DNA of 64,000 bases from an uncultured Poribacteria bacterium (lineage in GTDB: Bacteria > Poribacteria > WGA-4E > WGA-3G): the NCBI GenBank assembly GCA_951813565.1, contig OX638351.1:32001-96000 (forward strand). The letters run 5' to 3'. Positions 5,296 through 57,583 of this stretch are shown here, in pieces. Under the pieces are notes generated by a model, which did not search any database, was not told where the DNA came from, and saw nothing but the letters and a program-made list of their open reading frames with translations. A program made the translations under genes and the position numbers. Each line of letters starts with the position of its first letter. The first letter of the stretch is position 1.

Positions 5296-8200
5296 TTAGC
5301 GCGTCAGAGCGAGCTTAAGAATGGCGTATTCTGGCTCGAAACCATCTGTTACTTCTATCTGACAGTAATAGATGCCGCGAGCTAAGTCTTCGCCACCGCT
5401 GGTTTTTCCGTCCCAACCGATTCCGTTATTGCCAGTATAATCTCCAGCATTCATAACCACGTTATCCCGTAGGACTCGAACTGGTCGGAGCGTAGCGTCA
5501 TAAATGACAATACGAACCGTGGACATTCTGTTAAGTCCAAAGGAAATCCGTGTGTTATCCTTGAACGGATTGGGGAAGTTAAACGGTTTCATCAATATAG
5601 GTGCATCCGTATACTCAACGAAGAAACTGAACTGGTATACAGCTGTGTTAGCTTCGCGAGCTCCATCGCTTTCTTCAGAGACATTGCCCTGTTTTTGCGC
5701 GTTGTCGGATACCTCCAGTTTAACCACATGTTCACCAGGGGCAAGTCGATCAGTAAAGACAGGAGCCGCAGGTGTATAAACAACCTGTGTAGCTGACTTC
5801 TGCTTATCCGTGAGGTTAATCGGAGTCACTAAGGTTCCTCCACCCCATTTCGGTGCTTCTATAACAAGCTTGATAGAATCGACATTCACACCTGTTTCAG
5901 CATCGGCAAAAGTGATTGAGATGGTTGGTCTCGCTTCTTCGTCGTGCTTATACATCAGGCGTGCACCGTTCTGAGGTGAAGACGTTGTGATGATTGGTGC
6001 AGCGGTATCAAAATCAACTGTAAATACACCGCCACTTGTAGAGGAATTACCAAACGCATCTGTCGCACGAACTTCAATCGAGTAAGTACCCTCAGAAAGG
6101 GGTGCTTCAGGATGGAAGTCTAAGCGGGTGATACCTGCATTGGTTCTATCCTCATCGTCATCTGTAGTGTCACCTTTCACCTCTTCACCATTACTATCCA
6201 TTACGACGATAGCCATTTCTTCAACACCTGAGTCGTCGGTGGCACTCGCCGAAATAACCGGGAGTCCCGCATGAATAGTCCCAGCAGGAGTGATTGTGGA
6301 AATTATCGGAGGAGATTGATCTACCTCCAACGTGAATTGCCAACTAAACTCTCGTGTTCCACCTTCACTGGCCACTATGAGTTTAATGGTATGTGGTCCC
6401 GGTGTAAAGCTTTCTATAACCTCGAACTTGCTTTCAGCTCGTTCAACAGGATAAGAATTAGCCGGCAGTTGACCATCAATAACGTACTTCACACTTGATA
6501 AAGCAGATTCATCATCAGTGATCACAGCAGCGATGGTTATCGCAAAGTTTTCATCCAAGGTATTCTGCTTATTCAGTTGAACCACTCCAGATGGTGACAC
6601 TTCTGAAATGACAGGAGCCGTTGAATCCAACTTCACATTAAAGACAACAGTTGCCTGCGCTGTTTTATTATTTTCATCAGTGACTTCAACAAAGACGGCA
6701 TGTTCACCGTTACCCAAAACTGGGTCAGGCGTATAAGTGAACTGATTATCTTCGCTTATTTCTCGTTCAGCATCTTCACCGTTGACAGTAAATGTAGTTA
6801 CCTCAACATCTGTCATACCAGAAAATTCACCTCTGATAACAGGTCCACCGTGATCGTAGGTTTGACCTGGAGCAGGTGAAAGAATCGCTACTGACGGACC
6901 CGGTATATCCACCATGAAGTCAGTTGATGTCTTGGCGGTTCTGCCGTTAGCATCTGTGACAACAACAGTAACCACGTGTGGATCATCACTCAGCGCATCT
7001 GTTGGTGTGTAGGTGAATTCATTGTTGTCGCTACCGACTAACTCAACAGCTTCACCCTCATCAATAGAAAGTGTAACCTTTATAGGAGCAGCACCTGAGA
7101 AATCACCAGCGATAATCGGCATACCATGCTCATATACCTGACCAGCTGTAGGTGTTTGAATAGAGACTTTTGGAACCGGCAATCTTATGGAGAAGATTGC
7201 AGTCGCATCAGCACTCTTACCATTCACATCCGTGACTTTAGCAACGAGTGTATACTTGCCATCCTCTAACGCTCCATCATTATCGACATCTTTTTCAGGA
7301 AGCGTATACGCAAATTTGCTGCCATCGTCAGCGTCTGCTGAGACAACGTCACCATCAAGCGTAAGGATTAGTGAGTCAATATCAGCAACACCTGAATACT
7401 CACCTTGAATAACAGGATCACTAATATCATACATTTGACCTGCATCAGGCACATGGATCATAACCGTCGGACCCGGTATATCCACCATGAAGTCAGTTGA
7501 TGTCTTGGCGGTTCTGCCGTTAGCATCTGTGACAACAACAGTAACCACGTATGGATCATCACTCAGCGCATCTGTTGGTGTGTAGGTGAATTCATTGTTG
7601 TCGCTACCGACTAACTCAACAGCTTCACCCTCATCAATAGAAAGTGTAACCTTTATAGGAGCAGCACCTGAGAAATCACCAGCGATAATCGGCATACCAT
7701 GCTCATATACCTGACCAGCTGTAGGTGTTTGAATAGAGACTTTTGGAACCGGCAATCTTATGGAGAAGATTGCAGTCGCATCAGCACTCTTACCATTCAC
7801 ATCCGTGACTTTAGCAACGAGTGTATACTTGCCATCCTCTAACGCTCCATCATTATCGACATCTTTTTCAGGAAGCGTATACGCAAATTTGCTGCCATCG
7901 TCAGCGTCTGCTGAGACAACGTCACCATCAAGCGTAAGGATTAGTGAGTCAATATCAGCAACACCTGAATACTCACCTTGAATAACAGGATCACTAATAT
8001 CATACATTTGACCTGCATCAGGCACATGGATCATAACCGTCGGACCCGGTATATCCACCATGAAGTCAGTTGATGTCTTGGCGGTTCTGCCGTTAGCATC
8101 TGTGATTTCAACAGCAACCATGTGTTCACCATCACTCAGCGCATCTGTTGGTGTGTAGGTGAATTCATTGTTGTCGCTACCGACTAACTCAACAGCTTCA

Positions 8201-11200
8201 CCATCATCAATAGAAAGTGTAACCTTTATAGGAGCAGCACCTGAGAAATCACCAGCGATAATCGGCATACCATGCTCATATACCTGACCAGCTGTAGGTG
8301 TTTGAATAGAGACTTTTGGAACCGGCAATCTTATGGAGAAGATTGCAGTCGCATCAGCACTCTTACCATTCACATCCGTGACTTTAGCAACGAGTGTATA
8401 CTTGCCATCCTCTAACGCTCCATCATTATCGACATCTTTTTCAGGAAGCGTATACGCAAATTTGCTGCCATCGTCAGCGTCTGCTGAGACAACGTCACCA
8501 TCAAGCGTAAGGATTAGTGAGTCAATATCAGCAACACCTGAATACTCACCTTGAATAACAGGATCACTAATATCATACATTTGACCTGCATCAGGCACAT
8601 GGATCATAACCGTCGGACCCGGTATATCCACCATGAAGTCAGTTGATGTCTTGGCGGTTCTGCCGTTAGCATCTGTGACAACAACAGCAACCGTATACTT
8701 ACCATGACTTAATGCTTCTGCAGGCGTGTAAACGAATTGGTTATTGTCGCTACCGACTAACTCAACAGCTTCACCATCATCAATAGAAAGTGCAACCTTT
8801 ATAGGAGCAGCACCTGAGAAATCACCAGCGATAATCGGCATACCATGCTCATATACCTGACCAGCTGTAGGTGTTTGAATAGAGACTTTAGGAACCGGTA
8901 ACCTTACTGTGAAGATAGCTGTTGCTTTCGCCATTTTACCGTTAGCATCAGTTACTTCAGCAACGAGCGTGTATTCACCATCATCTAACGCATCAGTCGG
9001 CGTATAAGTAAACGTGTTATCGCCGGCTGCTGTGACAGCTGCACCGTTAAGGGTAAGACTTAGTGATACTGGAGCAGCAACACCTGAGAACTCACCATGA
9101 ATAACCGGTCTGCTGATATCATACATTTGCCCTGCATCAGGCACATGGATCATAACTGTCGGACCCGGTATATCCACTGTAAATTCAGTTGATGCTTGTG
9201 CCATGCGGCCGTTCGCATCTGTGACAACAACAGTAACCACGTGTGGATCATCACTCAACGCATCAGTTGGTGTATAAGTGAATTCATTACCACTTACTTC
9301 CATCACAGCTACACCATCAATGGAGAGTGTACCCGCTACCGGGTCTGCGCCTGAGAAATCACCTGTGATAATCGGCATACCATGCTCATATACTTGACCA
9401 GCTGTAGGTGTTTGAATAGAGACTTTTGGAACCGGTAGCCTTATTGTGAAAATAGCTGTTGCTTTCGCCATTTTACCGTTAGCATCAGTTACTTCAGCAA
9501 CGAGCGTGTATTCACCATCATCTAACGCATCAGTAGGCGTATAGGTAAACATGCTATCACCGGCTGCTGTGACAGCTGCACCGTTAAGGGTAAGACTTAG
9601 TGATACTGGAGCAGCAACACCTGAGAACTCACCATGAATAACCGGTCTGCTGATATCATACATTTGCCCTGCATCAGGCACATGGATCATAACTGCCGGC
9701 CCCGGTATATTTACCGTGAAATCAGTTGATGTTTCAGCAGTTCTACCGTTTGCATCTGTGACAACAACAGTAACCACGTGTGGACCATCACTCAGCGCTT
9801 CTATCGGTGTGTAGGTGAATTGGTTATTGTCACTACCGACTAACTCAATAGCTTCACCATTATCAATAGAGAGTGCAACCGCTATAGGAGTATGATCAGC
9901 ACCTGAAAAATCACCGGCGATAATCGGTTTGCCGTGATCATAGACTTGACCTGCAGCAGGTGTAGTAATTGTGGCTGTCGGAACTGGTAATTCTACTGTA
10001 AAGGTTAGAGATGTTTCAGCAGTTAGACCGCTACCATCTGTAACTTCAACAGCGACTGTGTAGTCTCCGTCACCTAACGCTTCGGTAGGCATATAAGTGA
10101 AGTTATTTTCATCTACTTCTGCAGTCATATCTGCATCGTTAATGGTAAACTTCGTAATGCTAACATCACCACCGCCGGTAAAGAAACCGGTGATTTCTGC
10201 CGGACTGTGATCAAAGTTCTGCCCGGAAGCGGGTGCGGTAATAATAACAATCGGATCTTCACCTTCAACAGCAAACGTTACTGCCTGTGTGCCTACGTTG
10301 CCAAGTCTATCTGAAACTTGGACTGTGAACATATAGGCGCCACCAGCAAGTTTGTCTGTGCGAGTATAGACGACAGAGTCTATATCCTGCTCAACCATAC
10401 TCTGATCAACAGGAATAGGAACTGCGTCCTGAACAACTTCTTCCGGACGGAGGCGATCTAATAAAACCTCAGCTGTATCCGCCATACTTACACCGCTACC
10501 CGATGGTTTAGTTGGATCAGTATCTCTTTCTGGATTCAGATCTATGAAACTTGCGAGGAGCGTTGGTAAGTCATTAACTGTAACCCCTTCCGTAGGTGTT
10601 TCAATAGTGATCGTTGGACCGGTGTTGTCCAAGTTAATCATCGCTAACGGGAAGGTCAAAAAACCGTTCCGTTTGGTTATGCGTCCGAGCGGTGTATACC
10701 ATCCGTCCGCTAATTCTGAAAGTTTATCTGCCATCAGTGAGAAAGCGTTCTCAGCATCACTGCCAGCAGTAAATGTTACTTCATGTCCATCAACGAGAAC
10801 ACCTGTAAGGTCTCCAACTGCTAATGAACCGTTATTAACATTGAAACTCACAGCAATTGATTCTTTGAGAGGGAACCTGCCTTGAAGTACTCCAACAGTT
10901 TCTTGGAGTACGTGCCTGTCTGGCGATTCACCATCCACTGCCGTTACAGTCAGGTCAGTAATGTCACTTAAACGGATGTTTAGAACATGAACGGTGATAA
11001 CTGGTGAAGGCATATCACCTTGCACCTGTACATTACCGAATTCATCAGCAACGAGCGCATGATACATATATGGACCATTTGCAAGAAGACCAACATCAAT
11101 TGTAATGCTTCCTTCTTCAAGACTACCATCTGTTTCAGTCACTGTTCCATCAGGAGCAGTTTGAACCAGAACAGTCTTTCCTCCGACATAAGTGTTCGGA

Positions 11201-14200
11201 TCAGCAGTCGGTTCAATGGTAAACGTAACATCCGTTGGATACAGAGCTGGATCATCAGCGATTAAACTGACAGTGTAGCTACCATCTTCATCCGCAGCAA
11301 TAGAACCTGCTACATCGGCAACATCAGTGATGTTTGTCGGACCGAGTGGCGGCACATCATCAACATTGTCTAATGAGAAGAAAGCTTCCACACCATCACG
11401 ATCGTGATATTCACGACCATCGCGCGGTGGTTCTTCACGTTGATTCATGTTCTGAGGTGTAAGCGAAATTGCACGCACCTCATACTGGTTATACTCGCGT
11501 GTATCTTTGGAAGCATCGCGTTCAGCAGCATCACCACGTTTAATTGTATCATCCAGTTTGATGGTTTCATCCGGTTTGTCGGTGCCTTCCAGTGCCAAAT
11601 GACGGGTATCCGCTCTAACAGACCATTTCTGATAGCCTGCAGGGATTCCAGGAATTCCTACTTCCGATTCCCCACCAGACACAGTGCCTGCCTGCGTGAT
11701 TCCGACAAGACCTCCAACGATACCTGCCAAATCGGATTCATCAACCATAACAGGTGGTTCAACGGTTCCAGTAATACGTTCCCAAGTTGTATCACCTCGA
11801 CGTCTTCTTACCTCAAACCGAACGCCTTCTGTTAGTGGTGAAGTCATACCGTAGGTATACGCTGTGAAAAGGAGGTCCCCTTGCGGTGCGCCGCTGTCAG
11901 GATTCGTTTCCGTTTCCGGATTCAAATTTTCAACAGTGATAGCTATCACACCTGGATCGTGTCTGTAGGAGTTCATAACATTCACTGTGGTTTTGTTTTC
12001 AACAGTGTCTATTATTTCACCACTTTCGGCACGATCATGGGTCTGATCATTCATGTCCGCGTCATAAGCCAGAGCGTGGACTTGGAACGTAAAGACTCCA
12101 CCTTTTGGATTCTCAAATAATTCCTCTGAATTTTCGATATAACTGTCTTCAATATATCTATCATTGTAGACCAATTCGTCAGCATCCATGAGTGTGCCAA
12201 CATCAATCGTTACAGTAAAGACACCGCTACCTTCGGCAGTTTCGGTGATGTCTCCGATAATAGCATCTTCAGGAAGAGTTGTTAGTAACTTCACCGATGC
12301 ATAGGTGTTACGTGCGGCTGTTGGTGTAATGGTGAATGTAACGACAGGAGAGTTGACTTCCGGATCGTATTTATCAACGAGACCACCAACTGTGTAAGTT
12401 CCGTCACCATTGTCTATAAAGACACTGGTATCCTCATACGCGTCAGTCATTGTTGCGACAATGTTCGTCGGGCCGAGCGGACCAACGTCATCAACGTTGT
12501 CTAACGAGAATTTCTCGGTAAACATGTCACCTTCAGCGACTCCATCTGCATCGTCACCATCACTGGTAACTGGGTATGCACGCACCATATAGCGGTTGCC
12601 ATCCAGGTCCACATACGTCATTCCCCCAGCATGCGCAGCATCGAGATTCTCTTTAGTGATGCTGTCTGGCAAACCCAAAGCAACGGTATCTAAATCAAGA
12701 GACCATTGGATGTAGCTGCTGGTGTCATGAATATGTAACATATCGTCTTTATAGACATCTGCTAAAGTGTTACCTTTAAACATAACAGCGGTTATCTTAT
12801 CGCCATCAATGCCATGTTCAGGTTCAGTCATTACTTCAACAGTGCCAACATCTGTCCACGTTTCGCCATCCATACTGACATCAACACGAATAGAGTTAGT
12901 TGCTGGAACTGTCCGACGTGCAGCATATCCGGTAAGCATGATATTGCCTCTCGGTGCGCCACTATCAGGACTCGTATCATCTATGATAGATGCATCATCA
13001 ACCTCAACAACTAAGACCTTCGGATCAACTGGGAAAACGTCTGGATCAAGCGTGATCGGGAACGGATCAGATTCAGACGTGAGTTGGAGACCGTTGGTTG
13101 TTACAGTACGAACCATTACGGCATCGCCTGCCAAATCAGCAGGGGCACTCCAATCAATTGTAAGCGGATCTTCGGTAGCACCTTCACCTTCGACTAAATT
13201 AAGTCCGCCGATATTCTGCCAAGTGCCAGCCGCGTCCATATACTGGACCATGATAGTTCCTGGATGGACTGTGCGTTCATCTTCATCGACTGTAACGGTT
13301 AGCGTTACATCTCTGGCATTCTCATAGATAGTACCGCTTTCATACGGGTCATCTTTACCATTATGGTTGATGTCACCCAAACTTGCCATGGTAACGCTCG
13401 CCCTATCATATTCAGGCGCAACGATTTTAAGATGCGTTGGAGCAACATGAGAACCGACATTAAAGAGTGTATCAATACCCATTGCACGTATCCCGAAATT
13501 ACCTTCTAAGAGCTCTAAATTCTCACCTTGAATAGGCATCATCATGACACGTGTCGTATCATAGGTTATCGGTATCAAATTAAGGTCTTGAACTGCAGCA
13601 CCTATTAAATCAACAAGCAACGCGCTTTGTTCCTCAGTAAGTTTTATTCCAAAGGGTTTCAAAAACGGATTTGCGAACTGTTGAACCAACTGGGCGTTTA
13701 ACAGAGTTAACACATCATCCAATTCTAACGCCGCGGCCGCCTGTAGAGCCGGATCGGACTGTCCTTCCAACTGTTCTCTGACAATCTTCCAGATATCCGA
13801 TGCTACCATAGAATTCTCAACCGTCAAACGCAACCACGTATCTGCCGGATCCGGTTTACCGTTTTCGTCCAATGGAATCATTTGATAAATAAGATACCCT
13901 TTACCCTCACCTACGTCAGAACTTGAACTTGTAATGTTCAAATAAGCAGCACCTGCGTTAGGAGACGTGGCAACCCAAGCACCTGCGGAATTCTGATAAC
14001 CGGTAACGTTTTCTCCGAAGTTATGTTCACCGTCTCCAAACATAATGTCTGCTGCAGGAGCAGTGGTGTCCACCTCAAAGTCAACCATAATCCGATCCAC
14101 AGGTTCGTTATTTGCATTATATACAACGGCTTCTAAGTTAGAAGCACCATCATAAATTGAATCAATATTAGCAAACCAAAATGAACCCGTTTCTATATCA

Positions 14201-15900
14201 ACTTCTGGCACACTGAAGACAGAGGCTAACAACGGATCGAAATTTCCACCGCGATATACTACGCCATTTTCATCAGGTTTGCCTTCAAAGGGACTGGTCA
14301 ACCTGTTGACATTGCGGAAGAACAGATTCTGGAGCTTATTGATTTCTCTTTGTGGAATTGCATTTGCAATCGCTGCACCTTCTATTGGTTCGCCAGCATA
14401 AGCAGCAGCAATAAGTGGCCTAACTTCAGGTAAATTCAGAAGCGTAAACATAGCGGCCTGTAAATCCGCATCAAATAATGCTTCAATGATACCACGTTCT
14501 GCCAATTGAAGGTTGCGCGGATCGGGCATTGACCAGTTTTGGATTTCATATACCTTTATGACGTCTGCAGTAGACGTTCCAGCAGCAGCAATTTGAATAA
14601 GCGCTTCAGGATTTATCACCTCTAACTTCACTGGATTGGTAAGTGTCACTTCAAAATAGTAAAAGACATTACCTTTCGGATAAATTCCGAATTCAAATTC
14701 CCAAACACCATCGCTATTTCGTTCCATAGGATGGGAATCAAAGTCCTCTCCGTCTACCGAATACCGGAGTACAACGCTTGAGAAGATTTCGGTATCTGAA
14801 CCTGGCCATGCGGGTAGGTTCGCCGCTGCAAGCGATTCGTCCAATCGGAAGGTATAAGGAATAGTATCCTGTTGAAATTCAACTGGTGTAATCCTTTTAC
14901 CCTCTACTGTCCGGCCATTAAGATTAAATTTAACATTCCCACCTTCAAGCACAGATGGAACGCGTACATAAACGTTCAGGTTATCACTTGTCAGGTATTT
15001 TTTAACGTCAAAATTGCCGGTGGAAATATCAGCAAAGTCTGAGATAACAAGACTGGGCGTAATAGCATTCCCAAAGTTCTCAAAATCTAACTGCGATCCC
15101 TTTCCTTCAGCAAAAACAGAAAAAGGTTGTTGAGAAGCTAAAATCTGTTTAATCACACCCTTGGGGAGAATCCCCTGCGGGATTTGCGCTAAAATAAAAT
15201 CAACTACAGGCTCCACTAACGGGTCTGCACTTGATGCGGGTAATCCAGCTGCTTTAACAATTTCTCGAACAAAAGCTCTTCCAGAAACTCTGTTAAGTGA
15301 AAGACCACCAAGCCGTGACAGACCATTTAGGTTTGAAGGGGGAAGATCAACTGGCGGTTCAACCGGTGGATCAACTGGCGGTTCAACCGGTGGATCAACT
15401 GGCGGTTCAACCGGTGGATCAACTGGCGGTTCAACCGGTGGATCAACTGGCGGTTCAACCGGTGGATCAACTGGCGTTGCAGCAAGCAGTCCCTGGAGTT
15501 CCTTAACTGCCTCTGTGTCCTGCAGCAAAGTCCGAACTTTTGGGGCCTCTAAAAGTGCTCGGATATCTTGGTCATTTGTGAGTAAACCTATTTGTTCGTC
15601 TGTCACATCCGGCGCAACCTGTCTTATCAGAACAGGAGTTGCCAGTACCAAATCTAACGCAGGACCAAGTCCACCGAGTGCAACAATGGTAGGATTCTGT
15701 AAAGTTGCAGGATCGCTCAGTGCTGTGAGAACTTGATCGACCAGATCCTTAAGATCCTCACGCAAAAGCGTATCGCTGTATTCATCATACACCTGTTGGG
15801 CTAAAGACGCGTCATCTTGCCCAAACACAGTGCCTGGAATTGAACTGTGAAATATACACAATGTAAAAATCAAAAAACAAACAAGTGTTCGTTTTTTCAT
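5296..15900 (-). CDS. giant secreted surface protein (3534 aa) with ~17 Ig-like repeats and a T9SS-type-A-like/FlgD C-terminal domain
   Basis: Signal peptide, Pro-rich linker, repeated ~90-aa beta modules (P.V.I..P...F.YTP...L.DG.Y.....V.D.NG), C-terminal FNFPNPF...IYD...WDGK...GIYY. Confidence 0.85.
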   Translation of the reverse strand: MKKRTLVCFLIFTLCIFHSSIPGTVFGQDDASLAQQVYDEYSDTLLREDLKDLVDQVLTALSDPATLQNPTIVALGGLGPALDLVLATPVLIRQVAPDVTDEQIGLLTNDQDIRALLEAPKVRTLLQDTEAVKELQGLLAATPVDPPVEPPVDPPVEPPVDPPVEPPVDPPVEPPVDPPVEPPVDLPPSNLNGLSRLGGLSLNRVSGRAFVREIVKAAGLPASSADPLVEPVVDFILAQIPQGILPKGVIKQILASQQPFSVFAEGKGSQLDFENFGNAITPSLVISDFADISTGNFDVKKYLTSDNLNVYVRVPSVLEGGNVKFNLNGRTVEGKRITPVEFQQDTIPYTFRLDESLAAANLPAWPGSDTEIFSSVVLRYSVDGEDFDSHPMERNSDGVWEFEFGIYPKGNVFYYFEVTLTNPVKLEVINPEALIQIAAAGTSTADVIKVYEIQNWSMPDPRNLQLAERGIIEALFDADLQAAMFTLLNLPEVRPLIAAAYAGEPIEGAAIANAIPQREINKLQNLFFRNVNRLTSPFEGKPDENGVVYRGGNFDPLLASVFSVPEVDIETGSFWFANIDSIYDGASNLEAVVYNANNEPVDRIMVDFEVDTTAPAADIMFGDGEHNFGENVTGYQNSAGAWVATSPNAGAAYLNITSSSSDVGEGKGYLIYQMIPLDENGKPDPADTWLRLTVENSMVASDIWKIVREQLEGQSDPALQAAAALELDDVLTLLNAQLVQQFANPFLKPFGIKLTEEQSALLVDLIGAAVQDLNLIPITYDTTRVMMMPIQGENLELLEGNFGIRAMGIDTLFNVGSHVAPTHLKIVAPEYDRASVTMASLGDINHNGKDDPYESGTIYENARDVTLTVTVDEDERTVHPGTIMVQYMDAAGTWQNIGGLNLVEGEGATEDPLTIDWSAPADLAGDAVMVRTVTTNGLQLTSESDPFPITLDPDVFPVDPKVLVVEVDDASIIDDTSPDSGAPRGNIMLTGYAARRTVPATNSIRVDVSMDGETWTDVGTVEVMTEPEHGIDGDKITAVMFKGNTLADVYKDDMLHIHDTSSYIQWSLDLDTVALGLPDSITKENLDAAHAGGMTYVDLDGNRYMVRAYPVTSDGDDADGVAEGDMFTEKFSLDNVDDVGPLGPTNIVATMTDAYEDTSVFIDNGDGTYTVGGLVDKYDPEVNSPVVTFTITPTAARNTYASVKLLTTLPEDAIIGDITETAEGSGVFTVTIDVGTLMDADELVYNDRYIEDSYIENSEELFENPKGGVFTFQVHALAYDADMNDQTHDRAESGEIIDTVENKTTVNVMNSYRHDPGVIAITVENLNPETETNPDSGAPQGDLLFTAYTYGMTSPLTEGVRFEVRRRRGDTTWERITGTVEPPVMVDESDLAGIVGGLVGITQAGTVSGGESEVGIPGIPAGYQKWSVRADTRHLALEGTDKPDETIKLDDTIKRGDAAERDASKDTREYNQYEVRAISLTPQNMNQREEPPRDGREYHDRDGVEAFFSLDNVDDVPPLGPTNITDVADVAGSIAADEDGSYTVSLIADDPALYPTDVTFTIEPTADPNTYVGGKTVLVQTAPDGTVTETDGSLEEGSITIDVGLLANGPYMYHALVADEFGNVQVQGDMPSPVITVHVLNIRLSDITDLTVTAVDGESPDRHVLQETVGVLQGRFPLKESIAVSFNVNNGSLAVGDLTGVLVDGHEVTFTAGSDAENAFSLMADKLSELADGWYTPLGRITKRNGFLTFPLAMINLDNTGPTITIETPTEGVTVNDLPTLLASFIDLNPERDTDPTKPSGSGVSMADTAEVLLDRLRPEEVVQDAVPIPVDQSMVEQDIDSVVYTRTDKLAGGAYMFTVQVSDRLGNVGTQAVTFAVEGEDPIVIITAPASGQNFDHSPAEITGFFTGGGDVSITKFTINDADMTAEVDENNFTYMPTEALGDGDYTVAVEVTDGSGLTAETSLTFTVELPVPTATITTPAAGQVYDHGKPIIAGDFSGADHTPIAVALSIDNGEAIELVGSDNNQFTYTPIEALSDGPHVVTVVVTDANGRTAETSTDFTVNIPGPAVMIHVPDAGQMYDISRPVIHGEFSGVAAPVSLSLTLNGAAVTAAGDSMFTYTPTDALDDGEYTLVAEVTDANGKMAKATAIFTIRLPVPKVSIQTPTAGQVYEHGMPIITGDFSGADPVAGTLSIDGVAVMEVSGNEFTYTPTDALSDDPHVVTVVVTDANGRMAQASTEFTVDIPGPTVMIHVPDAGQMYDISRPVIHGEFSGVAAPVSLSLTLNGAAVTAAGDNTFTYTPTDALDDGEYTLVAEVTDANGKMAKATAIFTVRLPVPKVSIQTPTAGQVYEHGMPIIAGDFSGAAPIKVALSIDDGEAVELVGSDNNQFVYTPAEALSHGKYTVAVVVTDANGRTAKTSTDFMVDIPGPTVMIHVPDAGQMYDISDPVIQGEYSGVADIDSLILTLDGDVVSADADDGSKFAYTLPEKDVDNDGALEDGKYTLVAKVTDVNGKSADATAIFSIRLPVPKVSIQTPTAGQVYEHGMPIIAGDFSGAAPIKVTLSIDDGEAVELVGSDNNEFTYTPTDALSDGEHMVAVEITDANGRTAKTSTDFMVDIPGPTVMIHVPDAGQMYDISDPVIQGEYSGVADIDSLILTLDGDVVSADADDGSKFAYTLPEKDVDNDGALEDGKYTLVAKVTDVNGKSADATAIFSIRLPVPKVSIQTPTAGQVYEHGMPIIAGDFSGAAPIKVTLSIDEGEAVELVGSDNNEFTYTPTDALSDDPYVVTVVVTDANGRTAKTSTDFMVDIPGPTVMIHVPDAGQMYDISDPVIQGEYSGVADIDSLILTLDGDVVSADADDGSKFAYTLPEKDVDNDGALEDGKYTLVAKVTDVNGKSADATAIFSIRLPVPKVSIQTPTAGQVYEHGMPIIAGDFSGAAPIKVTLSIDEGEAVELVGSDNNEFTYTPTDALSDDPHVVTVVVTDANGRTAKTSTDFMVDIPGPSVAILSPAPGQTYDHGGPVIRGEFSGMTDVEVTTFTVNGEDAEREISEDNQFTYTPDPVLGNGEHAVFVEVTDENNKTAQATVVFNVKLDSTAPVISEVSPSGVVQLNKQNTLDENFAITIAAVITDDESALSSVKYVIDGQLPANSYPVERAESKFEVIESFTPGPHTIKLIVASEGGTREFSWQFTLEVDQSPPIISTITPAGTIHAGLPVISASATDDSGVEEMAIVVMDSNGEEVKGDTTDDDEDRTNAGITRLDFHPEAPLSEGTYSIEVRATDAFGNSSTSGGVFTVDFDTAAPIITTSSPQNGARLMYKHDEEARPTISITFADAETGVNVDSIKLVIEAPKWGGGTLVTPINLTDKQKSATQVVYTPAAPVFTDRLAPGEHVVKLEVSDNAQKQGNVSEESDGAREANTAVYQFSFFVEYTDAPILMKPFNFPNPFKDNTRISFGLNRMSTVRIVIYDATLRPVRVLRDNVVMNAGDYTGNNGIGWDGKTSGGEDLARGIYYCQIEVTDGFEPEYAILKLALTR
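6895..8898. repeat. ~3.5 near-identical 573-bp tandem repeats (two Ig domains each)
   Basis: CGGACCCGGTATATCCACCATGAAG starts at 6895, 7468, 8041 and 8614; identical shadow ORFs at 7187, 7760 and 8333. Confidence 0.95.
15345..15476. repeat. 24-bp tandem repeat x5.5 encoding a (PVDPPVEP)n linker
   Basis: GATCAACTGGCGGTTCAACCGGTG repeated exactly. Confidence 0.95.
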
Positions 15901-25686: not shown

Positions 25687-25784
25687 TATATACCTCCTTA
25701 ACTTTTATGAATACCGTTAGTTTAACGTGAGTTTGATAATTAGACCTAAATGTAGATGTCCGTTGGGTAGAGCGAAGCGAAACC

Positions 25785-26123
25785 TATAGGCGTCAATTTA
25801 GTGCCTGATTTTCTTGTGGGAGGGCTTTCTAAGCCCGATATTGTGAGGCTCAAACCGTTATATCGGGGTTGAAAACCCGACAAATGCCAAAAAGCGCATT
25901 TGGCGTTGATTTGGCAGCATGCCAAACGCGCATGCTGCGTTGATTTGGACAAATGCCAAAAAGCGCATTTGGCGTTGATTTGGCAGCATGCCAAACGCGC
26001 ATGCTGCGTTGATTTGGACAAATGCCAAAAAGCGCATTTGGCGTTGATTTGGCAGCATGCCAAACGCGCATGCTGCGTTGATTCGCTCCCACAATAGGAT
26101 ATATTCTAAAATTGACGCCTATG
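25785..26123. mobile_element. MITE family B nested in a REP hairpin
   Basis: Ends TATAGGCGTCAATTTAG / CTAAAATTGACGCCTATG; flanked by direct repeat GTAGAGCGAAGCGAAACC (25767-25784 and 26125-26142). Confidence 0.85.
25879..26083. repeat. 69-bp tandem repeat x3, made of six ~35-bp hairpin units
   Basis: Unit starts at 25879, 25948, 26017; two alternating hairpins, each followed by GTTGATT. Confidence 0.95.
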
Positions 26124-26307
26124 AGTAGAGCGAAGCGAAACCCAACAATTCAACCGTCTTGGAAGTAATTTAAAGTTGAGTTTCACTCATTTTCCTGTTA
26201 TTTCGGCATCAAATGGAGAAAAAATCTCTCTTTTATGTCCGATTTTTTGTTTATTCCGTTCTACCCAACGGACAGTGGTTATTGAATTTTATTATCAAAC
26301 TCACGTT

Positions 26308-26336
26308 AGTTTAGCATAGCTACCTTAAATTTACAA
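26308..26336 (-). promoter_or_regulatory. sigma70-type promoter (TTGTAA-N17-TAAACT, extended TG), probably the original promoter of the dehydrogenase
   Basis: Its -10 box lies inside the MITE target-site duplication. Confidence 0.5.
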
Positions 26337-29210: not shown

Positions 29211-29496
29211 CTATTCTATTTTATGGAATTTGTCGTTTGTTTCCTATAATATTTCAAGACCTTCACACAACAAGATAGTCTGCACACTTGTCATCCGGTT
29301 CAACGTTGATCTTGGCGATCTGTTCACAAAACGCTGGTGTCATCCACAGCCACGCATTAGAAATCTAATACACCAACGATTCGTTCATCAATACGCTTCG
29401 TTACGAAACATAGCAAGTTCTCGCCGTAACCGTCTATCTGCGCGGTCTGATTCTTGAAATGCTTCGCCTCATAGTTCAAGTAGTGAGGCCATAATA

Positions 29497-30024
29497 TCAA
29501 TATGAAAAAATGTTTGCGATTGTCCAAATAAAACTAATGAATCCAAATAAGGTGAATTGGGTCACGGATCCAATACGAATTATATGATAACGTGAGTTTG
29601 ATAAATAGTTAGAACTTCCACATTTCCTCTTAAAGTCCCTCTGATAAGGGGGATTTAGGGGGTTAAAAACGCCAAAATAACGATTTTTTCAGCAAATATG
29701 CCCGTTCTCTGTTCAATTTTTGCCTGTCCAGTTAATTATCAAACTCACGTTATGATAAGTAATTATTTGAACCAATATTTGACACACAAATGTGCCAACG
29801 CCTGCTAAAATAAGACCAATCCAACCTAACATCAATAATCCGTTAAGACAAGCAAGGGGCAAAGCCAAAAACATATACCATCTCATAATTGCAGATCCGA
29901 TGGCAGTTGAAGCCCACATTGGATTATATAATACACCTTCCCCTCTGATTTTATAATAATTCATTCTGGAAATACCATTATACGCGATGGAATGGACAAT
30001 TATAAAAATTATTAGAGGAAGCAT
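29497..30024 (-). pseudogene. membrane protein gene interrupted by MITE A
   Basis: Removing 29590-29750 plus one TATGATA restores a 119-aa ORF ending YHIIRIGSVTQFTLFGFISFIWTIANIFSY* (stop 29497-29499). Confidence 0.85.
29590..29750. mobile_element. MITE family A copy 2 (161 bp)
   Basis: ACGTGAGTTTGATAA...TTATCAAACTCACGT; duplication TATGATA at 29583-29589 and 29751-29757; internal AAAGTCCCTCTGATAAGGGGGATTTAGGGGG repeat. Confidence 0.92.
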
Positions 30025-30036
30025 TACACCCGCACC

Positions 30037-30402
30037 TTACTTTAATTTCGTTCGCCGACCACGAACAGGTGGTAATAACTCCCAGCCTCTATCTTCAAGT
30101 GATTTCTTTATTTGTTCATACTCTTCCATATCAGGTTTTATTTCAATTTGAGCGGGGAACTTGCCATTCTTGGGTTTCACAGACAGATGAATATATGATA
30201 AAGATTTATGACGGAGTATATGCTTTATTTCGCCATTGTTATCATACCAAGTAAATAAATCATGTGAACCTCTATTTAACACACTGGTTTCATAGTTTTC
30301 TGGTCTATCATATTGATTTAATTTTATACCTGTCTCCAAAACAGTTCTTTGTTTCGCTTCTTTTTCTATTGTTTCAAATAACTTTTGAAATATGTTGCTC
30401 AT
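30037..30402 (-). CDS. hypothetical protein (AT-rich insert)
   Basis: GGAGG RBS, 121-aa ORF, no family recognised. Confidence 0.6.
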   Translation of the reverse strand: MSNIFQKLFETIEKEAKQRTVLETGIKLNQYDRPENYETSVLNRGSHDLFTWYDNNGEIKHILRHKSLSYIHLSVKPKNGKFPAQIEIKPDMEEYEQIKKSLEDRGWELLPPVRGRRTKLK

Positions 30403-30456
30403 CTATACCTCCACTTTGAAATGTTTAGTCTCTTAATTCAAGTAGTATGCTATAAA

Positions 30457-30903
30457 TTAGATATTGTCTGGTATAATTGAACATACAGTCATGTAAAGAC
30501 GTTGTGATAAATAATTTAAATCCGCAGGTCTATTTGGAAATACCCAAGGAATGAGGTGTAAATGATTTAGATCTTCTAACACTACGGTATATGCAACCGC
30601 TTGGAATTTCAATTGCTGATTTTCACCCATTTCTAATTCTGCGGTAGTAAGGATACCATCAATTTCATCTTCCGTATACTCTTTATGGTGTGTTTGTAAA
30701 ACAATTTTATATAAATCTTCATGTGATAGATCAGGATGTGTTGATTTAGCACGATAATAAAAGAAAAGTAGATATTTTAGATGCTTTTTTATCACACGAA
30801 AAGCGAATGATCTACTAATAAGGTAATGCGGTCTTCTTAAAAATGGCAAAAAAATAGCAAATGGACCAATAATCTTTGAAGTGAGCCAAAGTAAACCACT
30901 CAT
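30457..30903 (-). CDS. hypothetical protein (AT-rich insert)
   Basis: 148-aa ORF co-oriented with rplA, no family recognised. Confidence 0.55.
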   Translation of the reverse strand: MSGLLWLTSKIIGPFAIFLPFLRRPHYLISRSFAFRVIKKHLKYLLFFYYRAKSTHPDLSHEDLYKIVLQTHHKEYTEDEIDGILTTAELEMGENQQLKFQAVAYTVVLEDLNHLHLIPWVFPNRPADLNYLSQRLYMTVCSIIPDNI

Positions 30904-30994
30904 ATCCGAACCTTGAAGTTTCTATTCTGCCGCGCAATACGTTCTTTGCGTTGCTGCCGTTCATGCTCAAACCGACTGACACGCAATTCGCGAA

Positions 30995-33389: not shown

Positions 33390-33463
33390 CAGGCCAGGAG
33401 GGATTCGAACCCCCAACATCCGGTTTTGGAGACCGGCGCTCTACCAGTTCGAGCTACTGGCCT
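33390..33463 (-). tRNA. tRNA-Trp(CCA)
   Basis: Cloverleaf AGGCCAG...CCGGT-CTCCAAA-ACCGG...GGTTCGAATCC...CTGGCCT-G. Confidence 0.95.
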
Positions 33464-33476
33464 GTGGACGTAAAGT

Positions 33477-33629
33477 TTAGCGAGTCTCCTTATGCAGCGT
33501 ATGTTTACGGCAGAAACGACAATATTTTTTGCGCTCATACCGGTCCTGCTGCGTCCGTCGATTCCGTGTTGTTATATAATTTCGTTGTTTACAAGCATCA
33601 CATGCTAATGTTACTATGTCTCTCGGCAT
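33477..33629 (-). CDS. rpmG: 50S ribosomal protein L33 (Zn-ribbon form; missing from the ORF track)
   Basis: [50 protein letters not shown]. Confidence 0.96.
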
Positions 33630-33656
33630 AAATTTCCTACCTTCGTATTATATAGG

Positions 33657-33732
<76 letters not shown>

Positions 33733-33750
33733 AAGTCATTATGTATCACA

Positions 33751-33823
33751 AGCGGGAGACGGGATTCGAACCCGCGACGCATGGCTTGGAAGGCCAATGC
33801 TCTACCAGCTGAGCTACTCCCGC
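33751..33823 (-). tRNA. tRNA-Gly(TCC)
   Basis: GCGGGAG...TGGC-CTTCCAA-GCCA...GGTTCGAATCC...CTCCCGC-T. Confidence 0.95.
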
Positions 33824-33834
33824 ATAAAACCGAA

Positions 33835-33916
33835 TGGGGGCGGACGGATTCGAACCGCCGTAGGCATTGCCAACAGATTTACAGTCTGCCCTTTTTGACC
33901 GCTCAAGCACACCCCC
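33835..33916 (-). tRNA. tRNA-Tyr(GTA)
   Basis: GGGGGTG...GCAGA-CTGTAAA-TCTGT, long variable arm, GGTTCGAATCC. Confidence 0.95.
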
Positions 33917-33923
33917 AAAGGGA

Positions 33924-33995
33924 AGCTGACGAGAGGAATCGAACCTCCAACCTAGTGATTACAAATCACTTGCTCTACCATTGAGCCACGTCAGC
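33924..33995 (-). tRNA. tRNA-Thr(TGT)
   Basis: GCTGACG...AGTGA-TTTGTAA-TCACT...GGTTCGATTCC...CGTCAGC-T. Confidence 0.95.
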
Positions 33996-37721: not shown

Positions 37722-38230
37722 ACGTGAGTTTGATAAATCCGTAGGGAATCAACACCGAATGCGCCTACGGCATTCGGTGGGGTAGAACGAAAATGGGGAA
37801 TAAAAAACAGCCTCTAAAGAGAGGTTGTTGACCCATTTGAGGTCTACATTTCTGAAAAAATAAGTGAAACCCAACTCTTTAGGACTCTCAAGACGGTTGA
37901 ATTGTTGGGTTTCGCTTCGCTCTACCCCATAAGTGTCAACTTAAGAAAAAATGCTGTATTTTCTCTTGTGGGAGGGAGACCTTGTCCGCCCGATATTGTG
38001 AGACTCAACCTATTATATCCAAATCAACGATGAATGGCGCCTATGGCATGCTGCCAAATCAACGCTGAATGCGCGTGTAGGCATTCATCGGGGTTGGAAA
38101 CCCCTCCCACAAGAGGATATATCCTTAAGCTGACACCTATGGGTGGGTCCCGCCGAATACCGCACGCGTATTTGGGCGTTGATTCACTGCATCTATACGG
38201 ACATTCGGGTACCCAATATTGAACTCACGT
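37722..38230. mobile_element. MITE family A copy 3 (composite, inverted relative to copy 1)
   Basis: ACGTGAGTTTGATAA...AATATTGAACTCACGT; interior matches the reverse complement of 26125-26190; flanking duplication not preserved. Confidence 0.8.
37928..38141. mobile_element. MITE family B copy nested at the same REP
   Basis: CATAAGTGTCAACTTAAG...CTTAAGCTGACACCTATG; internal CTCTTGTGGGAGGG/CCCTCCCACAAGAG pair; directly after GTTGGGTTTCGCTTCGCTCTACCC. Confidence 0.85.
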
Positions 38231-48163: not shown

Positions 48164-48284
48164 AACAATAAGTCAAAAGGACCATACACCTGTCCCTCTC
48201 GAATCAACGCCAATATATCGGGGTTGAAAACCCCTCCTCCAAGAGAGAAGATAATCCCAAGAACTTCACTCACTCTTCATCTTC

Positions 48285-48686
48285 AGGGTTATTTAGTTTT
48301 CGATTTTTCGGCTATATTTTCACATTTTAATATAAACTAATACGTATGCAAAGTAGTAGGCACACGCCGTGGGTTTCCGTCCACCCAAAATGTAAAGCGG
48401 ATGGCACGCGGAGCGTGCCTGCTTACCATGTCTAAATCAACGTCAAGTGCGCTTATGGCATTCGTCGGGTGCTAAGATGCGATTTGCCAAAGCCTCGGAG
48501 AGGCGAAAGGTGTATAGTAAGCGTTGATCCCGCCAATAGCAAGCCCCAGAGGGGCGAAAGGTGTATCCGATGCACAAATGCTAAACGCTAAATTGACGCC
48601 TATGGGTTTCGCAAACTCTACCCGAAGGACGATATAAACTATCAGTAAAACTCAGTAACTGATAATTCTTAAAACTAAATAACCCT
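48285..48686. mobile_element. MITE family D (composite with REPs and a MITE-B end)
   Basis: Perfect 16-bp inverted ends AGGGTTATTTAGTTTT...AAAACTAAATAACCCT; internal GTAGTAGGCACAC/CGTGCCTGCTTAC pair and two AAGCC..GAG.GGCGAAAGGTGTAT repeats. Confidence 0.75.
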
Positions 48687-50661: not shown

Positions 50662-50761
50662 CCATAAGCGTCAATTCAGCAAGTGCAATATGTGCGTTTA
50701 ATGTTGATTCGGACAAAAGGGAAATCTTATAATATCAGGCTTATAAACCCTCCCACAAGAG
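50662..50761. repeat. decayed MITE-B remnant
   Basis: CCATAAGCGTCAATTCAG end, GTTGATTCG unit remnant and CCCTCCCACAAGAG REP half. Confidence 0.6.
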
Positions 50762-57511: not shown

Positions 57512-57583
57512 CAGGGCGGGTAGGATTCGAACCTACGCATGCAGGTGCCAAAGACCTGTGCCTTACCACTTGGCCACCGCCCT
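57512..57583 (-). tRNA. tRNA-Gln(TTG)
   Basis: AGGGCGG TGGCCAAGTGGTAAGGC A CAGGT-CTTTGGC-ACCTG...GTAGGTTCGAATCCTAC CCGCCCT G. Confidence 0.92.

Follow-up and report, generated by a model that had tools for sequence, protein, structure and literature searches.

In the window analysed here, a 64,000-nt stretch of the genome of an uncultured Poribacteria bacterium, six copies of a hairpin of about 35 nt stand in a row at positions 25879..26085 and split a larger palindromic repeat. We asked whether so small a unit is a mobile element and, if so, what moves it. A first-pass annotation had placed the unit at five sites in the window, each directly followed by GGG, and all five were recovered with their coordinates, strands and GGG as claimed. 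The unit is 33-36 nt long and has two parts, an invariant AATCAA tag and, after it, a hairpin with a C-G closing pair. In the type seen first, the stem is 9 bp long and its second pair is frequently a C-T mismatch (85/430 copies). A sister type carries a bulge of two bases near the stem foot (276 hairpins), and a third, tag-less type ends in ATG. The tag does not vary, the base before it is almost without exception a purine, and across two genera the bulged type is identical letter for letter. Terminal inverted repeats and target duplications were looked for at the unit ends and none were seen, in agreement with the first-pass annotation. At many sites of this genome (G000; among them C1:698019 and 1111617), tag-less, ATG-ending hairpins sit in the loops of AATCAAC units and are joined exactly at their 3' end.

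The array at 25879..26085 (minus strand) does comprise six units, but it is not made of six independent copies. Types of 34 nt and 35 nt alternate and form three copies of a ready-made 69-nt dimer, which occurs singly at 18 other sites and is triple only here; six separate insertions were ruled out because the array is a tripled dimer. The closing G, the pairing partner of the leader's last C, is position 25878 (minus strand), and the host also has G here, so that its origin is locally ambiguous. The split host is a REP with a GTGG foot (25863..26092, minus strand). The array is carried by a 582-bp MITE (25725..26306), whose terminal inverted repeats are 15 bp long and whose target duplication measures 7 bp (25718-25724 and 26307-26313). 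This MITE is missing at the orthologous site in 5/5 relatives, one of which (G006) has a single target copy. Ends like those of the MITE also flank a PF13612 DDE transposase, which we take to be IS982-like. The unit itself was rejected as a DDE-type MITE, since inverted repeats and a target duplication belong only to the 582-bp carrier.

Three further sites lie close together. A single unit whose first stem pair is A-T occupies 37746..37779 (plus strand, with closing G) in a host context with 23 filled copies, and two tandem units occupy 38020..38090 (plus strand, with closing G) at the C^G of an inverted REP. Another single unit, at 38151..38186 (minus strand, with closing G), has a left arm that is one base longer, as judged from sequence and fold. 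Around these units lies a second pair of ends of the 582-bp-MITE type (37722..38230), with no matching target duplication, and this element is absent from the orthologous site in 5/5 relatives. The absence of both carriers at orthologous sites indicates that the window units at 25879-26085 and 37746-38186 arrived as cargo. At 48433..48467 (plus strand), sequence and fold identify a decayed unit between two different repeats.

Canonical stems, which had been described for the named sites, were found at most of them; the exceptions are the first unit at 38020, whose mismatched arms give no canonical hairpin fold, and the decayed unit at 48433. Of two proposed remnants, the one at 48200..48213 (plus strand) is a truncated leader with the start of the left arm and is also present at the orthologous site of G006, but the one at 50675..50711 (minus strand) is at best a possible decayed copy whose arms pair poorly. 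The claim that the unit interrupts REPs at 25879 and 38020 was borne out by 39 uninterrupted copies of the first host in the genome, and by 187 empty against 50 filled copies of the second host site.

Other features of the window were recorded. An Rfam scan of the window matched tRNAs only and left the unit unmatched; six tRNA genes lie at 33390-33995 and 57512-57583. A 1.75-kb stretch at 29238-30994 holds three short ORFs, all without a Pfam match; contigs from three sequencing runs have 64 different bases in its place. A 161-bp MITE with a target duplication lies within this stretch at 29590-29750, and a minus-strand ORF of 3534 aa at 5296-15900.

The association of AATCAAC with the stem is beyond chance. 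In the whole genome, 399 of 2358 AATCAAC sites precede a stem in which 8 or all 9 pairs are formed, compared with 0-4 such stems for each of seven control heptamers (565-1743 sites each). A relaxed definition yielded 430 copies in 339 arrays, and a broader leader pattern that includes the sister types yielded 1087 matches, against 4 in the reversed genome. Stems vary while their pairing is kept, as had been proposed: among 53 distinct stems picked by leader and loop only, with relatedness uncontrolled, 228/318 cells were paired (shuffled: 186±6.6), and 0/2000 shuffles reached 228. Hairpin-correcting mutation could contribute to this covariation.

Empty sites show that the unit is mobile, and of this we are nearly certain. 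Empty paralogues exist for 268/483 arrays. Unique DNA on both sides was found for 25/523 arrays, two of which are inside genes; both genic insertions were searched in 40 genomes of the genus, and the 30 best loci of each were examined. In a gene of the lipoate-ligase family (L411, G000:C1:4511663), a 36-nt in-frame unit adds 12 residues, and among these 30 best loci the site was filled in 3 and cleanly empty in 27. In an OGG glycosylase gene (L412, G000:C1:4444600), a 33-nt in-frame unit adds 11 residues; here 14/30 best loci were filled, in part decayed, and 16/30 were empty. The OGG insertion is old and has decayed in three relatives. Four filled relatives have G as its closing base and most have A, which leaves the original state uncertain. 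Both genic insertions kept the frame and show no duplication. With empty alleles at paralogous and orthologous sites, the earlier suggestion of a tiny, structure-conserving mobile element is upheld. At repeats, contigs from four sequencing runs break, and orthologous alleles are unreadable there.

Copy number is far above the number of insertion events, as 399/523 arrays have repeated DNA on both flanks, in about 120 context classes. Most copies arose by multiplication of the larger repeats that carry them; later spread is by such cargo transport together with local tandem duplication.

The filled and empty sites also define the junctions. The base right after the stem is G in 483/501 terminal units of the first two types, and in folds that include this G it pairs with the final C of AATCAAC. 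In one host REP, the closing position is A in 160/160 empty copies and G in 18 filled copies. Flank classes for which an empty paralogue exists number 63, and in 28 of them the replaced host base is non-G; the classes are non-independent and represent perhaps a dozen host families. Because non-G host bases are replaced, the closing G is the unit's own base and not the host's. The reported GGG does directly follow 249/306 terminal copies genome-wide, but its first G belongs to the unit, and GGG as an insertion target was therefore ruled out. The two bases after the closing G are GG in 319/483 arrays, followed in frequency by TA, GA, CC and TT. The 3' junction is exact, yet only loosely sequence-specific.

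At the other end, 0-3 variable bases stand before the tag. The commonest 5' class (26/63) is a clean insertion at C^G, and in the other classes 1-5 target bases are lost; the ragged junction often has one base in common with the target. The rule is thus an exact 3' junction after the closing G and a ragged 5' junction with loss of 0-5 target bases. Targets are mostly within or adjoining hairpins, and insertions were found in REPs, MITEs, other units and the two genes. Self-nesting occurs in the loop of another unit or between its tag and hairpin, and 122 doubled leaders were counted. Some leader repeats are more numerous than their hairpins, which indicates that slippage contributes to doubling. 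The geometry of nesting differs between genera: one purine replaces two bases in 16/16 cases at loci of genus g13, and two bases replace one in 9/9 cases at loci of g1 and 29/29 in this genome, and all these may descend from few events.

The wider family is confined to one Poribacteria family; outside it, one true unit was found among 64 genomes. The first type was matched in 23/24 genus relatives and in 0/16 genomes of other families. For the bulged type the counts were 39/39 in g1, 59/65 in g13 and 0/3 in g9, and 8 of the 64 genomes outside the family had one or two matches each, including the one true unit. A tag-free pattern and follow-up revealed low-copy true units in g10, g11 and g12, and further stem variants were seen in the second genus. 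In a GTDB-wide pattern scan, 61/80 among the matches listed were from Poribacteria, and the other 19 were without the unit's stem. Among well-assembled genomes, G023 (one contig) has 42+127 units and G001 (four contigs) has 79. Nine units of G001 are clustered among repeated nuclease genes, presumably Rpn-like and Uma2-like (L087-L088, C2:12000-50000).

What, then, moves the unit? We tentatively favour, at somewhat below an even chance, a reading in which the unit is non-autonomous and is transferred in trans, in the form of a folded DNA single strand, by a strand transferase of the HUH/Y1 type. A fixed unpaired tag next to a stem that keeps its shape but is free in sequence suggests that what is recognized is DNA in single-stranded, folded form. 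Moreover, the architecture parallels that of tagged REPs, with an unpaired 5' tag, a variable stem and a mismatch or bulge near the foot, and Y1 genes are common in the family (100/112 genomes). Y1 enzymes are described as cutting and rejoining REPs on single strands; cleavage is at short dinucleotides at a variable distance, and a free 3'-OH is joined to the tyrosine-held end (PMC8266576). In the favoured reading, the enzyme would read the tag and the stem foot. Of the two ends of the cut target, the one that stays attached to the enzyme would account for the exact junction, and the one with the free 3'-OH would lose bases before it is ligated and so produce the ragged one. Trimming of the free end has been proposed as an origin of junction variety (PMC3333891).

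Several observations count against a Y1 enzyme. This genome, which is 95% complete, has ten Y1 matches, five of the IS200/IS605 type and five RAYT-like or subclass 1.2-like. A search for an enzyme gene flanked by the unit had been suggested, but no Y1 gene is specifically so flanked in this genome or at 14 loci of relatives; Y1 genes are flanked by host REPs or other repeats, and nearby units sit inside those hosts. Nor did 150 unit loci share a recurrent mobile-element-specific neighbour gene, or any match to a local Y1 profile. The unit-rich, well-assembled G023 and G001 had no Y1 match either with Pfam or with a local RAYT profile, whereas RAYT matches were found in 2/3 genomes of the genus in which no unit was found. 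No strand bias relative to local GC skew or gene direction was seen. Published guide rules, based on the four bases 5' of the hairpin, predict no single cut site that fits both junctions. Target bases are lost, and to our knowledge such loss is not a feature of IS200/IS605 insertion. The absence of the enzyme today may reflect its loss after insertion, as most copies spread as cargo; the literature describes REP-rich strains that can have lost their Y1 gene.

The resemblance to elements moved by Y1 enzymes is partial. REPs, BIMEs and REPINs with GTAG or CGTC tags share with the unit an unpaired end tag, a variable hairpin, a size of 20-40 bp and an intergenic, tandem arrangement (PMC3733652, PMC8266576, PMC3116915, PMC3333891), and some of the tagged REPs in these accounts also insert in frame into genes or into other palindromes. 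REPs, however, carry a defining 5' tag, GT[AG]G or CGTC, where the hairpin has its foot (PMC6006769, PMC3733652). The unit's tag is AATCAA(C), not GTAG, GTGG or CGTC, and no RAYT gene is flanked by the unit; neither its tag nor its gene linkage makes it a REP. Unlike REPINs as characterized in PMC3116915, the unit moves as a single hairpin and not as an inverted doublet, and it parasitises the GTAG REPs of its genome. The ends of IS200/IS605 elements and of their non-autonomous derivatives are likewise hairpins with conserved foot bases that insert without target duplication, but the unit is one hairpin instead of two ends, has no fixed target tetranucleotide and removes target bases. In the IS605 elements resident in this genome, the target is fixed and the ends are unlike the unit's. 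In four IS605-type elements (L002-L005), the base 5' of the left end covaries with the hairpin-foot base (TTAG/AAAC, TTAA/AAAT), a covariation that the IS608 guide rule predicts.

It is possible, at well under the likelihood of the Y1 reading, that the junctions reflect one-sided transfer of a new kind. A protein would read the 6-base tag and the hairpin foot and join the closing G exactly, and the other end would be left to lineage-specific repair.

A dedicated enzyme may not be needed at all, though we consider this unlikely. A host replication or repair protein could join or copy the hairpin at forks stalled in palindromes, with one end exact and the other joined by one-base microhomology, and the covariation would stem in part from palindrome-correcting template switches. 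This would accommodate the one base that ragged junction and target often have in common, the targets in or beside hairpins, and a self-nesting geometry that depends on the genus despite the same unit sequence. It also agrees with the enzyme search, in which none of the tested families (Y1/RAYT, RT, Cas1, short tyrosine recombinase) was present in all unit-rich genomes. However, generic template switching would not choose one tag; the invariance of the tag, the identity of the bulged type in two genera and the confinement to one family are hard to reconcile with host repair.

Equally, the failure of every tested family as the sole explanation could mean that the enzyme is of another family, or is encoded by a plasmid or phage in the sponge community that escaped binning. 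We regard this as distinctly unlikely. Near-identical units in many species do suggest a common trans-acting source, but no recurrent neighbour gene was found and viral contigs contained no true unit (0 matches; 11 chance matches). In this genome, there was no PF01548 match to an IS110 transposase and no PF04986 (Y2) match, the control sequences for the latter also being unmatched; genome proteins were compared by word-based clustering. Three IS607-like elements in this genome have GG at both junctions and ends unlike the unit's, and an IS607-like mover was rejected because the unit is without a left GG and its ends differ.

The closing G raises the comparison with integrons. Integron integrases act on folded single-stranded attC sites, whose features include an AAC-ending box, an L box, TT after the G and arrangement in a cassette array, and strand exchange takes place after the G that pairs with AAC. 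A tyrosine recombinase might treat the folded, single-stranded unit similarly and exchange one strand after its AAC-paired G, with replication or repair making the ragged end. The exact junction after this G is attC geometry, and both are folded single strands with unpaired bases. Occurrence also seemed suggestive: a PF00589 match is present in 37/39 and 63/65 genomes of two unit-rich genera and in 0/3 of the genus without units. This correlation was weakened on inspection, since the matches are different types of protein and G092 has one unit and no PF00589 match. The sole tyrosine recombinase of this genome (L027, 207 aa, G000:C1:4771354-4771977) consists of a catalytic domain only, which appears intact by sequence; no full-length XerC or XerD was matched in this genome. 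Its type is found in 28/40 genus members at 77-95% identity and was not found in the other 12/40, including the unit-rich G023, G001, G005 and G010; in the other large genus, the short recombinase is of another type and adjoins another gene. L027 lies downstream of a conserved palindrome of its own and upstream of a second conserved motif, and looks XerS-like. Against the integron integrase profile it scored 38 bits, the cut-off being 265 bits. Furthermore, the unit is much shorter than attC, has no L box or cassette array, is followed by TT after the closing G in just 18/483 arrays, and has no integron integrase. We therefore consider a tyrosine recombinase improbable.

The first-pass annotation had also left room for an RNA-based route, which the present data disfavour and which we rate as very improbable. 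A small RNA would be reverse-transcribed into nicked DNA, as in target-primed retrotransposition, which likewise gives an exact 3' and a ragged 5' end. The junction asymmetry has the matching polarity, and the related tag-less hairpin family with its exact 3' end and the purine before the tag would also fit. Reverse transcriptases, however, were found in only 17/39 genus relatives and not in the unit-rich G023, G104, G006 and G017, and those of this genome are one CRISPR-linked and one DRT4-type defence enzyme. On the tag-first strand, G-T mismatches (16) did not exceed A-C mismatches (30), and no unit was found near 30 group II intron RT loci. The CRISPR-linked enzyme is a stand-alone RT encoded between cas1 and a CRISPR array of 52 repeats, with type III-like genes adjoining (L023, G000:C1:3.99-4.01 Mb), and the DRT4-type RT is at G000:C1:0.81 Mb (L022).

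Off-target integration of the unit by one end through Cas1-Cas2 is the least credible route, for although the unit length fits local spacers (34-41 nt) and Cas1 is common in the family (85/112 genomes), Cas1 was unmatched in the unit-rich G017, G021, G006, G016 and G022 and is present in 3/3 genomes of the genus without units, no repeat is duplicated, and the unit is unlike the local CRISPR repeat. The arrays were also rejected as CRISPR arrays themselves, as the units are head to tail without spacers and dispersed, and the CRISPR repeat differs.

The closest counterparts in kind are the small dispersed repeats (SDRs; Elhai et al. 2008) of Nostocaceae, as the first-pass annotation had suggested and as the SDR-like nesting confirms. 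Those of Nostoc are reportedly 21-27 nt long and nest in themselves, and we know of no mobiliser for them. SDRs, especially SDR4-6, are likewise very small, non-coding, structure-conserving and inserted in other repeats, and the unit shares with them mobility, compensatory stem changes and nesting without target duplication. Compared with SDRs, the unit is longer (33-36 nt), has another sequence, belongs to another phylum and has no single octamer target; moreover, one exact and one ragged junction are shown for it. SDR5, by comparison, is reported to insert precisely into HIP1, and the same accounts place SDRs in Nostocaceae only (PMC4390886, PMC5861425). No description of the unit was found in the open literature, subscription journals and supplements being outside the search. 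We conclude that the unit family is undescribed, as had been suggested, but that elements of its kind were already known in cyanobacteria.

The mobility of repeats shorter than 40 bases is an open question, and the movement of REPs by RAYT has been demonstrated solely in vitro. The present family supplies hundreds of copies per genome, datable in-frame insertions and over 100 genomes of relatives. The rules that its junctions obey are explicit (precise after the closing G, ragged on the tag side, with genus-specific nesting) and lead to testable predictions. If a dedicated enzyme exists, it would insert a 34-base module with no duplication of the target. If one-sided transfer is true, it would represent a new transposition chemistry for a cargo of 34 bases and might also supply the mechanism that is missing for cyanobacterial SDRs. 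For the bacterium itself, a major sponge symbiont, the unit lengthens proteins by 11-12 residues and gives rise to layered repeats in the genome.
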